A stretch of 51,502 bases of DNA from Escherichia coli. GTDB taxonomy: Bacteria; Pseudomonadota; Gammaproteobacteria; Enterobacterales; Enterobacteriaceae. The notes beneath the pieces were generated by a model that was given only the letters and a program-made list of their open reading frames with translations, ran no database searches and was not told where the DNA came from. The position numbers were made by a program, and so were the translations under genes. Shown here piece after piece: positions 1-38,564 of this stretch. The stretch is from NCBI RefSeq assembly GCF_003334255.1, contig NZ_QOWU01000037.1; one strand, 5' to 3'. Numbering within the stretch: the stretch's first letter is position 1; each line of letters opens with the position of its first letter.

Positions 1-304
1 ACGCGAGGCATCGTCTTAACGAGGCACCGAGGCGTCGCATTCTTCAGATGGTTCAACCCTTAAGTTAGCGCTTATGGGGATTTGCCCCCCCGGTAGAGTT
101 GCCCCTACTCCGGTTTTCGAGACCGGTCCAATCATCAAACGAAACATAAAATTAATTCACATTATGAGGAAAAGTATCTTTTTTGTACTTGTAAATTCAA
201 AGGCTTAGCCTCATTTCCCCGATGGTTTTCTCAACACTACTGCTTGTGAGCCCTTGCAATGTTCATTAATATACGTCTCACAAATAATTCATAGATATTG
301 CAAA

Positions 305-1078
305 ATGGATATTACTGAGTTTCCTTCTGGAGTAATTGAACACCTTGGCTGGTATGTATACCGATTGATTGATCCGAGGGACGGAAGCACCTTCTATGTA
401 GGGAAAGGCAAAGGTAACCGCGTATTTGCCCATATGCGCGGTGAAGTGGCAGCGACTGATGATGACGAGTTACTGAGCAACAAGCTAAAGCAAATTAGAG
501 AAATAAGGTTAGCAGGACTTGAGGTTATCCATGTCATCCATCGACACGGAATGACTGATGAAAAGACGGCGTACGAAGTTGAAGCAGCACTTATTGATGC
601 CTACCCTGGGTTAACGAATATCATGAATGGTGCTGGCAGCAATGAATTCGGCGCCGCGCATGTCAAAGAGTTGATAGCAACATATCAACCCGAAACCATA
701 ACATTTCATCATAAAGCATTAATGATTTCCGTTAACAGAAGTGCAAAGGATTCAGAGCTTTATGATGCGGTTCGATTTAGCTGGCGCATTAATGTCTCTC
801 GCGCCAGCCAAGCAGAAGTCATTCTTGCTACTGTAAGGGGGATCGTTCGAGGGGTTTTCATTGCTGATAAATGGCTCAAATCAACACGTGAAAATTTCCC
901 TACGATGAAATACTGGGACGAGGATCCGGACTTTGAGGCAACACAAAGTTCTCGCTATGGTTTTGAAGGTCGAGAAGCCCCACCTGAAATAGCAAATCTT
1001 TATCTTGGAAAAAAAATACCAGATGAATTAAGAAAAAAAGGAGCTATGTCCCCGGTCCGTTACTCACCTAATTTTTGA
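305..1078 (+). CDS. GIY-YIG domain protein (putative nuclease; function unknown)
   Basis: ORF 254..1078; N-terminal motif [29 protein letters not shown] resembles GIY-YIG; start at ATG 305 (MDITEF) preferred, ATG 254 possible; C-terminal ~170 aa unrecognised. Confidence 0.6.
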
Positions 1079-1135
1079 GTCTTTAAGTGATAAGCATAAA
1101 CCGCAGCACGATCTTGCATACGACGTGCTACGGTT

Positions 1136-1690
1136 TCATTTATCTCCGACCGGAAACTTCTTATACAGTGTCGATATACCAACATCATAGATGATCGCCA
1201 CCTTCTGGCGAGGAACGCCTGATGCAATTAATCGCCCGGCCTGCGCCCATTGTTCTGGTGTAAGTTTGGGACGACGTCCACCAATTCGTCCCTGTGCGCG
1301 AGCAGCCTCCAGTCCAGCTTTTGTTCGTTCAACAATCAGTTCTCGTTCCATTTCAGCCAGGGCCCCCATCACATGAAAGAAAAAACGCCCCATCGGTGTG
1401 CTGGTATCAATAGCATCCGTCAGGCTGCGAAAATTAACGCCACGTTCGCGCAACTCCTCAACCAGAATGACCAGATGCCGCATACTACGCCCCAGCCGCT
1501 CCAGCTTCCAGACAACCAGAGTGTCACCTGCCGATAATGTCCTGAGCAGTTTTTTCAGTCCCGGCCTTTCGGACTTTGTACCGCTTATCTTGTCTTCAAA
1601 AATCAGCTCGCATCCTGCACAGTTCAGCGCATTACGTTGTAGATCTGTGTTCTGGTCATTTGTTGACACACGTACATAGCCAATAAGCAT
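1136..1690 (-). CDS. pin: DNA invertase, Pin/Gin/Hin-family serine recombinase
   Basis: MLIGYVRVSTNDQNTDLQ...GRIGGRRPKL matches Pin of e14 by recall; start taken at internal ATG 1690 rather than ORF-track 1726. Confidence 0.9.
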   Translation of the reverse strand: MLIGYVRVSTNDQNTDLQRNALNCAGCELIFEDKISGTKSERPGLKKLLRTLSAGDTLVVWKLERLGRSMRHLVILVEELRERGVNFRSLTDAIDTSTPMGRFFFHVMGALAEMERELIVERTKAGLEAARAQGRIGGRRPKLTPEQWAQAGRLIASGVPRQKVAIIYDVGISTLYKKFPVGDK

Positions 1691-1716
1691 GGTAGATCTC
1701 CCTGACAAAAGCAGGA

Positions 1717-2130
1717 ATGATGCCATTTGCTTGTTATTTCTGCATTTTCATAAACGTTGGTTTGGGAGAAGCGGCAAGACGAAATGTGGGAACAGGGGAA
1801 AATCAGATACCGGACATGGCTTCATTTAGTGGGGTGAGGGATTATTACGGAAAACAACTTTTGCCAGGAGGGTTGATACTTCAGTGGCTGACGATTCCAT
1901 CAAGTGCAGCAGCCAACGCTGTAACACTGAATAATGGTAATTATCAGCTGTCAGGCTATAAATGGCCCCAGTCATTTGGTGTCCTGTTTGCTGTGTTTGC
2001 TACAAAAGTTTCTGGCTCGACTAACGAAGCATATGCAATCTCAGTTAATCGTCACTCTACCGATGTAATTGTCACCTGGAATGCCCGTAAGGCTGATGAT
2101 GTCCACATTTTAGGAATTGGGAAATTATGA
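1717..2130 (+). CDS. Alternative tail-fibre C-terminal variable segment (silent orientation; no independent start)
   Basis: ORF begins inside the inverted repeat, shares LGLGEA junction with expressed fibre, followed by its own tfa. Confidence 0.5.
1752..1772. repeat. Left inversion crossover site (pix/gix-like inverted repeat)
   Basis: Inverted-repeat partner of 3460..3480, directly upstream of pin start. Confidence 0.55.
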
Positions 2131-2546
2131 AAATGAAATGGTCACCATCTGTTCAGGGATTTTTCTCTGAAAATAACAGCGATATTCCCGATGATGCTTT
2201 CGATATTGAAGATGCTCTTTATTATGAACTTATGAATGGTCAGAGTACGGGGAAAATTATTATCAATAACCCGGATAACTACCCTGTACTTACTGAATAT
2301 CCAGCGAAGACACAGGAACAGGAAATAGCTGAAGCGGAGGGAATGAAAAGTATACTTATTGAACAGGCCAACGAATACATGAACAGTAAGCAATGGCCTG
2401 GTAAAGCCGCTATTGGTCGTCTGAAAGGTGAGGAACTGGCGCAATATAATTTGTGGCTGGATTACCTGGACGCACTGGAACTGGTCGATACTTCCGGTGC
2501 GCCAGATATTGAATGGCCTACGCCTCCGGCAGTTCAGGCCAGATGA
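2127..2546 (+). CDS. Tail fibre assembly protein (Tfa, alternative orientation)
   Basis: 139 aa, Tfa-like; positioned after alternative fibre segment. Confidence 0.7.
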
Positions 2547-36566: not shown

Positions 36567-36785
36567 ATGGCAGACATCATTGATTCAGCATCAGAAATTG
36601 AAGAATTACAGCGCAACACAGCAATAAAAATGCACCGCCTGAACCACCAGGCTATATCTGCCACTCATTGTTGTGAGTGTGGCGATCCGATAGATGAACT
36701 AAGACGTCTGGCCGTTCAGGGTTGTCGGACTTGTGCAAGTTGCCAGGAGGAGATCGAACTTAAGAACAAACAATGGGGATTGTGA
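36567..36785 (+). CDS. TraR/DksA-family C4 zinc-finger protein
   Basis: CCECGDPIDELRR...CRTCASCQEE. Confidence 0.75.
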   Translation: MADIIDSASEIEELQRNTAIKMHRLNHQAISATHCCECGDPIDELRRLAVQGCRTCASCQEEIELKNKQWGL

Positions 36786-36833
36786 TGGCCTCAAAGCAGC
36801 AAATTTCAACATCAGTCCAACTGAGGTGTAAAA

Positions 36834-37112
36834 ATGTTCAGAATCATTTTTCCTAACACCTGGTACGTCGACCACCACGGCACTCCCTGCAAAATCCTGC
36901 GTTCTACCCACAACAAAGTTCACTACATCCGAAAAGGCAGAACATGTATCGCCAGCATGTTCCGCTTTAATCATGACTTTGAACCTGTGAATAAAGCTGA
37001 TGCAGATCGGATAGCAGAAGAGATCGAAACGGCAGAACACATTAAGAAGTTACGTGACATGCGTTCAAAAAGCAGAGGTAACCATGGAATCATACAGCCT
37101 CACACTCGATGA
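36834..37112 (+). CDS. Hypothetical protein
   Basis: 92-aa ORF upstream of xis; overlaps xis start. Confidence 0.45.
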   Translation: MFRIIFPNTWYVDHHGTPCKILRSTHNKVHYIRKGRTCIASMFRFNHDFEPVNKADADRIAEEIETAEHIKKLRDMRSKSRGNHGIIQPHTR

Positions 37113-37434
37113 GGCCTGTCAGTTTCTCAAGATATCCAGACCTACCGCTACCAACTGGATACGAACAGGCCGCCTACAGGCAACACGCAAAGACCCCACT
37201 AAACCAAAATCTCCTTACCTCACAACGCGACAAGCCTGCATTGCGGCGCTTCAGTCTCCGCTGCATACTATCAAGGTGAGCGCGGGTGATGGCATAACAG
37301 AGGAAAGAAAATGTCACTCTTCCGCAGAGGTGAAATATGGTACGCCAGTTTCACATTGCCGAACGGTAAAAGATTTAAACAGTCTCTTGGAACAAAGGAC
37401 AAAAGGCAGGCGACAGAACTCCATGACAAGCTAA
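37084..37434 (+). CDS. xis: Excisionase-like HTH protein (Xis)
   Basis: [31 protein letters not shown]; agagg SD; 3' end overlaps int, true stop uncertain. Confidence 0.55.
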
Positions 37435-38474
37435 AGGCTGAAGCATGGCGGGTCAGCAAACTTGGTGAAATACCTGATATAACGTTCGAGGAAGCGTGTG
37501 TCAGGTGGCTTGAAGAGAAAGCACATAAAAAATCACTGGACGATGACAAAAGCCGGATCGGATTCTGGCTTCAACATTTCGCAGGAATGCAACTAAGAGA
37601 CATTACTGAATCAAAAATTTATTCAGCAATGCAGAAAATGACGAACCGGCGTCATGAGGAAAACTGGAAACTCAGGGCAGAAGCATGCAGAAAAAAAGGG
37701 AAACCTGTTCCAGAATACACGCCAAAACCAGCGTCCGTTGCAACGAAGGCTACGCATCTTTCATTTATAAAGGCCCTACTAAGAGCCGCAGAGCGTGAAT
37801 GGAAAATGCTGGATAAGGCACCAATTATTAAAGTGCCTCAACCAAAGAATAAACGGATCCGCTGGCTGGAGCCCCATGAAGCACAAAGGCTGATTGATGA
37901 ATGTCCGGAGCCATTAAAGTCTGTTGTTGAATTTGCACTGGCAACAGGCTTAAGACGCTCGAACATCATCAACCTTGAATGGCAACAAATAGATATGCAG
38001 CGCCGGGTGGCATGGATAAACCCGGAAGAGAGTAAATCAAACCGCGCAATCGGCGTTGCGCTGAATGATACTGCATGTCGCGTTTTGAAAAAACAAATCG
38101 GGAATCATCACCGTTGGGTATTTGTGTACAAGGAAAGCTGTACCAAACCAGACGGAACGAAAGCGCCAACAGTAAGGAAGATGCGGTATGACGCAAACAC
38201 AGCCTGGAAAGCAGCGCTGAGGCGGGCTGGTATTGATGATTTCAGATTTCACGACTTGAGACACACCTGGGCAAGTTGGCTGGTTCAAGCCGGAGTCCCG
38301 TTGTCAGTGTTACAGGAAATGGGAGGCTGGGAGTCTATCGAAATGGTTCGTCGATATGCTCACCTTGCACCTAATCACCTTACCGAACACGCACGGCAAA
38401 TAGACTCGATCCTGAACCCATCGGTCCCAAATTCGTCCCAGTCAAAAAATAAGGAAGGTACTAATGATGTGTAA
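37311..38474 (+). CDS. int: Tyrosine integrase (IntD/DLP12-type)
   Basis: 387 aa [22 protein letters not shown]...[10 protein letters not shown]...VRRYAHL; ends 14 bp from tRNA 3' end. Confidence 0.9.
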
Positions 38475-38488
38475 CTTATTGATTTAAA

Positions 38489-38564
38489 TGGTGCCGATAA
38501 TAGGAGTCGAACCTACGACCTTCGCATTACGAATGCGCTGCTCTACCAACTGAGCTATATCGGC
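38489..38564 (-). tRNA. thrW: tRNA-Thr (anticodon CGU), thrW-like; prophage attachment site
   Basis: Reverse complement GCCGATATAGCTCAGTTGGTAGAGCAGCGCATTCGTAATGCGAAGGTCGTAGGTTCGACTCCTATTATCGGCACCA folds as cloverleaf. Confidence 0.9.

Follow-up and report, generated by a model that had tools for sequence, protein, structure and literature searches.

The 51,502-nucleotide stretch of Escherichia coli DNA analysed here (from contig NZ_QOWU01000037.1; the whole stretch is referred to below as the window, with position 1 at its first letter) carries a prophage which is very probably a single temperate phage genome of 41.5 kb, lying in the 3' end of the tRNA gene thrW and composed of two parental blocks, one of SfIV type and one of DLP12/PhiR34_1 type. 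Lambdoid mosaics of this sort are well known, and its cargo includes an anti-T4 restriction gene that has been described before. The first block, of the kind found in SfIV, SfII, SfI, SfV and e14, would have supplied cos, the HNH endonuclease, terminase, head, tail, fibre switch, att-proximal cargo, attP, int and xis, while the second, of the DLP12/PhiR34_1 lambdoid kind (21580-37579), would have supplied immunity, O, P and ren, the lambda Red genes, RusA and the nin region, QuuD, a porin, lysis and Bor/Iss. A tyrosine integrase identical to that of SfIV would have inserted the genome through a 48-bp core common to attP and attB. An original prediction, made from the letters of the sequence, had proposed one mosaic prophage at thrW, and this was borne out by the finding of a single integrase and a single pair of 48-bp att sites. 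The mosaic was mapped using a per-gene tblastn table together with a nucleotide junction map against reference phages.

Ends of the prophage and the number of elements

The window is ~100% identical to the chromosomes of E. coli strains G1/2, G6/7 and G8, and the 15 kb to the left of it were fetched from the G1/2 record (negative window coordinates refer to this flank). The 48-bp attR core within thrW (Table 1) was found again as an exact direct repeat at -3022..-2975, so that attL does lie outside the window, as had been expected, and was reached by leftward extension. This single repeat pair at the two ends gives a prophage length of 41,509 bp. The prophage had been assigned to positions 1-38564 and is indeed present there, but it starts 3,022 bp further left, position 1 being merely the window edge, and it finishes at 38534, where the att core ends, and not at 38564, where the tRNA gene ends. 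On its outer side attL adjoins a yagP (LysR) fragment and paoD, which belong to the opposite flank of the insertion locus at thrW, and the host genes beyond thrW are, in order, proA, proB, phoE, crl, frsA, gpt, pepD and dinB. In phages SfV and SfIV the same 48 bp occurs without a mismatch, flanked by gtrA and int, and the 125 bp just inside attL are 95-97% identical to the attP arm of these two phages; a 46-bp attP common to SfI, SfIV and SfV has been described previously (PMC3851460).

No further att copy was found in the window or the left flank, whether by exact 12-mers or by a 32-nt core in which 3 mismatches were tolerated, and no second tyrosine integrase was detected with the Int proteins of lambda, HK97, e14, DLP12, SfV and PhiR34_1 as queries, all of which detected only the gene at 37311-38474. 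Besides this integrase, the only recombinase is a serine invertase of the Pin type. The presence of just one integrase and one pair of att sites argues against two prophages, and the search for a second att/int pair, which had been named in the original prediction as the finding that would speak for two, was negative and so does not support that reading.

There is a version of the two-element reading which concerns the attL side alone, in which an older island or remnant (an insertion sequence (IS) fragment, an AraC regulator, IS421 and possibly the restriction gene CMoRE) would lie by attL with a separate phage to its right. The 3-4 kb by attL are rich in IS debris, lower in GC and match none of SfV, SfIV, e14, lambda and DLP12, all of which would suit such an island. 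A YdeO/GadX-like AraC regulator adjoins attL, to the left of the window, and with an IS3-family transposase fragment and IS421 it occupies about -2736..-95 of the att-proximal cargo; the IS421 transposase coding sequence (~-1078..-95) is frameshifted. However, the AraC regulator is a member of a phage protein family, and the cassette of AraC and IS fragment was found at 98.8% identity in the plaque-forming lambdoid phages PhiR70_1, ev099 and mEp332. The order attL-AraC-CMoRE-pinE is repeated in many E. coli genomes, and relatives too carry cargo in the att-proximal slot past their fibre genes, namely gtrABx in SfV/SfIV and McrA in e14 and vB_EcoM-689R6. Taken together with the SfV/SfIV attP arm just inside attL, and with the lack of an internal att copy or second integrase, this makes two adjacent elements highly improbable, and we retain the reading of one prophage. 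Other genomes with the same prophage are mostly without the ~1.2-kb IS421 insert, their matches beginning at window positions 76-157.

The SfIV-type block

The region encoding tail, head and terminase (3460-20760) is 96-98% identical in nucleotide sequence to SfIV, with similar results for SfII, SfI, SfV and Escherichia phage vB_EcoM-720R4, and in the tblastn table all structural proteins aligned over 100% of their length with SfIV-group counterparts. The tail module encodes gp48/YmfQ, gp47 (J), gp46 (W), gp45 (V), gp44 (P), a DNA circulation protein, tape measure, assembly chaperone, tube, sheath and a DUF2635 protein. Its sheath, gp38, N, P and gp45-48 genes are syntenic with Mu (Mu gp38, gp39 and gp43-48, in the same order and at 30-43% amino acid identity); a direct tblastn match of the tube protein to Mu M was not found. 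The Mu/e14-like contractile tail that had been predicted was thus recovered, its sheath, baseplate and DNA circulation genes being 30-43% identical to Mu and 91-99% to the e14 remnants.

The neck, head and packaging genes encode tail terminator, head closure, connector, major capsid, prohead protease, portal, YmfR, TerL and a P27-family TerS. Curated NCBIfam cut-offs were passed by the portal (portal_HK97, TIGR01537, 260 bits against a cut-off of 112), the prohead protease (proheadase_HK97, TIGR01543, 158 bits against 59), the major capsid protein (major_cap_HK97, TIGR01554, 384 bits against 27.5) and TerS (sm_term_P27, 76 bits against 45.6). The description of the head as HK97-type therefore holds at the level of family, but identity to HK97 itself is only 26-36%. 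The linear genome ends of SfV and SfIV meet at 20760/20761, which places cos at this position.

The integrase (37311-38474) is 100% identical to SfIV Int and 99% to SfV Int, and just 73% to IntD, while Xis is 95% identical in amino acids to SfV/SfIV. An IntD-type integrase abutting tRNA-Thr had been predicted; the position was correct, the gene ending 14 nt short of the tRNA 3' end, but the type is that of SfIV. The virion segment and the xis-int-att segment would be contiguous across attP in the circular phage and so can be regarded as one parental block. No tblastn match to SfV GtrA, GtrB and GtrV or SfIV GtrIV was obtained in the prophage and, as gtrA-gtrB-gtr(type) was not found, the prophage is best described as a relative of the SfV/SfIV group and not as a serotype-converting phage. 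Homologues of MuA and MuB were absent from the prophage, and integration is site-specific at thrW, unlike that of a transposable Mu-like phage. SfIV itself has a contractile tail, cos packaging, HK97-family head proteins and thrW integration (PMC3851460).

The DLP12/lambda-type block

Positions 21580-27105 and 29585-37579 are 97% identical in nucleotide sequence to Escherichia phage PhiR34_1, a lambda-type siphovirus which was grown on K-12, forms plaques and is in effect an intact DLP12. Nucleotide matches to lambda are limited to three stretches, together ~5 kb at 94-97% (bor-Rz, 94.8%; ren, P and the O C-terminus, 93.8%; gam to orf61, 33987-36762, 97.4%). At the protein level, identity to lambda is 96% for Gam, 100% for Bet, 98% for Exo, 97% for P, 89% for Ren and 98% for Rz, and the lambda likeness claimed for these proteins and for Bor (89-100%), and for the O C-terminus, was confirmed, the O match stopping at 31008. 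The wider description of the early genes as lambda-type stood for Red, P, ren and the O C-terminus but not for the control genes: lambda cI, cro, cII, N, cIII, kil, Q, S and R, used as queries, found no real homologue in the prophage, nor did lambda Int or any lambda virion gene (E/B/C, V/H/J) by tblastn. An apparent match to lambda cII in the tRNA flank was rejected as a chance match. Homologues of SfV Q, S, R and replication proteins were not present in the prophage either, and its cI had a mere 41% local match to SfV.

The cI, cro and cII-like proteins are each 100% identical to those of PhiR34_1 (the cII-like protein was also assigned by PHROG). Operator-like palindromes of one type are found at 32426-32490, between cI and cro, and at 33431-33507, ~300 bp downstream of cI, and a terminator-like hairpin is present at 33313-33330, between cI and gam. 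No cIII-like gene was recognisable between the repressor and gam, where 33191-34069 contains a kil-like open reading frame (ORF; PHROG 294), the hairpin and palindromes. The early-left genes are 89-100% identical in amino acids to lambda, gene by gene.

The O protein is 67% identical to lambda O overall (phage_O_Nterm, 82 bits against a cut-off of 45.5), and five ~19-bp iterons (TTTACCTGATTCGGGTAAA) lie inside O at 31008-31129. The lambda nucleotide identity within O (93.8%) ends at 31008, which is where the iterons start, and so O is lambda-like at its C-terminus only, a break to be expected of lambdoid origins in which the O N-terminus has a specificity of its own.

The late-control/nin block is 94-99% identical in amino acids to DLP12 and 97.1% identical in nucleotides to DLP12 and PhiR34_1. 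Among the lysis genes, S (71 amino acids) is 100% identical to DLP12 EssD, a putative pinholin of the S21 type, and R is a signal-anchor-release (SAR) endolysin with 163/165 residues identical, over its full length, to PDB 3HDE, which is phage 21 R, and to RrrD (4ZPU), in agreement with the phage-21-type lysis that had been predicted. Rz1 has 96.7% identity with Rz1 of lambda and with RzoD. The porin passed the NCBIfam OmpC subfamily cut-off (515 bits against 484), and in DLP12 too a porin lies between Q and S, and Bor/Iss after Rz.

Table 1. Features of the prophage and its integration site (window coordinates)
Feature	Position	Strand	Evidence or comparison
IS421 (IS4-like), approximate right end	1-75	.	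G1/2 annotation; inserted in att-proximal cargo
CMoRE/PD-T4-3, single-gene GIY-YIG type IV restriction endonuclease	305-1078	+	PADLOC, PDB 9U75
pinE-type serine DNA invertase, Din family	1136-1690	-	94.6% aa e14 PinE, 77% Mu Gin; annotated pinE
Invertible tail-fibre segment	1752-3480	.	21-bp inverted repeats; crossover sites ~1746-1771 and 3461-3486
Tail-fibre gene, window orientation	2781-3764	-	constant N-terminus, glycine-rich variable C-terminus
Mu-like contractile tail module	3768-13159	-	98-100% aa SfIV; 98.1% nt SfIV; 30-43% aa Mu
Neck, HK97-family head and packaging genes	13165-20702	-	98-100% aa SfIV; 26-36% aa HK97
cos and HNH endonuclease region	20760-21169	-	SfV/SfIV record ends align at 20760/20761
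HNH endonuclease gene, companion of this terminase type	20819-21169	-	90-92% aa SfV/SfIV
Bor/Iss outer-membrane lipoprotein moron	21695-21988	+	91.8% aa lambda Bor; 90.7% BorD; annotated iss
Lysis cassette S, R, Rz, embedded Rz1	22020-23190	-	sequence identities to EssD, 3HDE, lambda
NmpC/OmpD-like porin moron, between Q and lysis genes	23779-24861	+	91% aa DLP12 nmpC
DLP12-type late-control/nin block: quuD (Q), ylcG, rusA, ybcO, ninE, ybcN, ylcH	25050-27105	-	
Variable ren-ybcN slot	about 27105-29585	-	ORFs of 169, 73 and 268 aa, Ea22-like, frameshifted small ORF, 66 aa
Replication module ren, P, O	29554-31561	-	P 97%, Ren 89% lambda; O 99.4% PhiR34_1
Immunity region: cII-like (YdaT-domain) and cro on -, S24-peptidase cI on +	31558-33507		
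cI, S24-peptidase repressor	32436/32502-33191	+	100% aa PhiR34_1
Early-left operon: kil-like ORF, gam, bet, exo, orf60a, orf63, orf61-like, TraR/DksA-like, DUF4222	33703-37112	+	
xis and tyrosine integrase, SfV/SfIV (thrW-specific) type	37054-38474	+	98% nt over 37084-38534
attR core, 48 bp, overlaps 3' part of thrW	38487-38534		identical to attL and SfV/SfIV attP core
thrW, tRNA-Thr(CGT), host integration target	38489-38564	-	ARAGORN, Rfam, annotation

The invertible fibre segment and the CMoRE gene

The invertible segment holds ORFs at 1772-2130 (+), 2127-2546 (+), 2518-2781 (-) and 2781-3460 (-), which comprise two alternative fibre C-termini and downstream ORFs. In the window orientation it yields a 327-aa fibre with a glycine-rich C-terminus, and in the opposite orientation a 220-aa fibre followed by a 139-aa assembly protein; the two complete fibres have 96 N-terminal residues in common, and the N-terminal 31% of the fibre is 96-99% identical to the fibres of SfV, SfIV and e14. 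Positions 1752-3480 are inverted in the otherwise identical G1/2 record, and these opposite orientations imply that Pin-mediated switching is ongoing in these strains. Together with the identities of PinE to e14 PinE and Gin, the inversion makes this a working switch of the Gin/Pin type, in which Pin would flip the segment so that two receptor-binding fibres, and with them the host range, alternate.

The gene directly beside pinE, in the slot where e14 and vB_EcoM-689R6 have McrA, encodes a protein matched by PADLOC as PD-T4-3 (E = 2.4e-140, positions 1-256 of 256) and ~98% identical over 257 amino acids to PDB 9U75, the E. coli O157:H7 CMoRE protein which has been crystallised and assayed. 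It has the CMoRE architecture, an N-terminal GIY-YIG domain and a C-terminal 5-hydroxymethylcytosine (5hmC)-sensing domain, in one full-length protein. CMoRE is a type IV endonuclease which degrades DNA containing 5hmC or glucosyl-hmC and so guards against T-even phages (PMC12923530), and it has been described as active in its native host. That report on CMoRE does not mention this prophage context. Module junctions had been suggested in the original prediction as places to look for further cargo, and CMoRE/PD-T4-3, the AraC regulator, the porin and Iss were all identified at them.

Integrity and frequency of the prophage

Frequencies were counted in 5,426 complete genomes of E. coli. Of these, 189 had 80% or more of window 1-20000 in one place, and the two junctions between the parental blocks were similarly frequent, that from TerS/HNH to Iss/Rz/R being present in 196 genomes and that from exo to xis-int in 161. 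The recurrence of these junctions in 161-196 genomes makes the hybrid the usual E. coli form of the lineage and not a one-off. The genes for virion, lysis, replication, immunity and integration are all full length when compared with functional phages, the lesions seen being one frameshifted small ORF and IS421 in the cargo region, and so the prophage is, from its gene content, apparently intact. Its size of 41.5 kb is within the range of phages with the same head (SfIV, 39.8 kb; SfII, 41.5 kb).

Several points nonetheless weigh against our interpretation, namely the frameshift in the small ORF of the ren-ybcN slot, the insertion of IS421 in the cargo region, the lack of a recognisable N-type antiterminator between cI and gam (33191-34069) and, in the phage collection, the lack of any record spanning both halves of the hybrid. 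The same points, together with the cryptic state of both its relatives in K-12, e14 and DLP12, would fit a defective prophage, a dead-end recombinant like e14/DLP12 which is kept for its cargo alone and gives no phage output. This we consider possible but rather unlikely, as the genes listed above are full length and both att sites are intact, the lesions are confined to non-essential cargo or accessory slots, the layout is kept at 96-99% identity and without decay across ~160-196 genomes, and Pin inversion is evidently continuing. The functional phage PhiR34_1 has the same cI-gam layout, also without a recognisable N. An apparently intact temperate phage genome remains our preferred interpretation.

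The variable ren-ybcN slot

Within the second block, none of the reference phages matched the interval 27111-29585 in nucleotide sequence, and the matches to it in the phage collection were patchy. Its ORFs fall in PHROG families of unknown function; PADLOC gave no defence-system match for the slot ORFs tested, including those of 169, 73 and 268 amino acids, and Pfam gave nothing for the 169-aa and 268-aa members of the ORF trio at 27111-28722. In a protein search of the phage collection the 169-aa ORF had two distant matches, at 44-46%. The same slot holds emrE-ybcK-ybcL-ybcM in DLP12 and PhiR34_1, and in PhiR26_1 it is occupied by PD-lambda-1 and Rha, along with a homologue, at 46% identity, of the 169-aa ORF.

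A twofold suggestion, doubtful when taken as a whole, is that the att-proximal pin/fibre slot may serve specifically for the exchange of cargo that protects the host and that the ORFs at 27111-28722 may include an undescribed defence or counter-defence gene. The former draws upon the different contents of the att-proximal slot, which is occupied by McrA in e14 and 689R6, by gtrABx in Shigella and by CMoRE in this prophage and ~190 genomes, and the latter upon the presence of PD-lambda-1 in the ren-ybcN slot of a sister phage.

Predicted life cycle and effects on the lysogen

From the gene content, the repressor would silence the prophage until SOS-induced self-cleavage of cI derepressed the early operons, upon which Int and Xis would excise the genome and O and P would replicate it, with Q then turning on the lysis and virion genes and the HNH-terminase pair cutting at cos. 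The lysogen would be predicted to restrict T-even phages, with their 5hmC or glucosyl-hmC DNA, by way of CMoRE/PD-T4-3, and may also gain an extra porin, the Iss/Bor lipoprotein and the YdeO-like AraC regulator. Lambda Red, the porin, Iss/Bor and the YdeO-like regulator can all affect host phenotype. The prophage would be homoimmune with PhiR34_1.

As a common E. coli thrW prophage it is a simple two-block recombinant, an example of textbook modular exchange among lambdoid phages, and is of little importance beyond annotation. In it, however, the cryptic prophages e14 and DLP12 of K-12 have intact counterparts, and it places CMoRE/PD-T4-3, a recently characterised anti-T-even nuclease, in the slot equivalent to that of McrA in e14.

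Host flank

A scan of the window with Rfam returned just the tRNA and, outside the prophage, a frameshift pseudoknot of IS3. Between pepD and yafP in the host flank, fragments of a truncated prfH and an rtcB-like pseudogene are annotated (46457-47180). The last 1.75 kb of the window (49750-51502) diverges from the G1/2 record, indicating that the window and G1/2 are different, closely related genomes. This divergent end contains the IS3-family transposase ORFs (50685-51490) with the ALIL frameshift pseudoknot (50966-51082), and a 256-aa ORF at 49817-50587 (-) without assignment.

Comparison with known phages and prophages

Comparison with lambda, e14 and DLP12, as the original prediction had proposed, did recover shared modules, but the closest relatives are the SfIV group and PhiR34_1, and not lambda, HK97 or Mu. 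SfIV, SfII, SfI and SfV (NC_022749, NC_021857, NC_027339 and NC_003444) share with the prophage the same int, xis (95%), att core and cos position, and the HNH endonuclease, P27 terminase, HK97-family head (of the SfIV/SfII/SfI type) and Mu-like tail are colinear at 96-98% nucleotide identity. Unlike these phages, the prophage has pinE with an invertible fibre segment, CMoRE, IS421 and the AraC regulator in its att-proximal slot, where no gtr was found, and its immunity, replication, nin, Q and lysis half is of DLP12/lambda type. For this half the counterpart is PhiR34_1 (PV340559)/DLP12, which shares 97% nucleotide identity over bor-Rz-R-S-porin-Q-rusA-ybcO-ninE-ybcN and again over ren-P-O-cII-cro-cI-gam-bet-exo up to xis; PhiR34_1 differs in having a lambda head, a siphovirus tail, an IntD-type integrase (73% identical) and emrE-ybcK-ybcL-ybcM in the variable slot.

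Lambda shares Gam, Bet, Exo, orf60a, orf63, P, Ren, Rz/Rz1 and Bor (89-100% in amino acids) and the overall lambdoid gene order. It differs in the O N-terminus and iterons, and homologues of its virion proteins, Int, cI, cro, cII, N, cIII, Q, S and R were not found in the prophage. HK97 has portal, protease and capsid of the same families at just 26-36% amino acid identity, and Mu has syntenic tail genes at 30-43% and a Gin at 77%, neither having any similarity at the nucleotide level and Mu having MuA and MuB, which were not found here.

The e14 element differs from the prophage in residing in icd by way of IntE, in encoding McrA (HNH) instead of CMoRE (GIY-YIG), in its other early region and in being heavily deleted, vB_EcoM-689R6 being an intact relative of the e14 type. 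Both e14/689R6 and the prophage have PinE with an invertible fibre segment, and a gene for a modification-dependent nuclease next to pin near att. The e14 remnants ymfN/aaaE, ymfR, beeE, jayE and ymfQ are 91-99% identical in amino acids to the prophage proteins, so that e14 can be regarded as a degraded representative of the virion lineage to which the prophage belongs.

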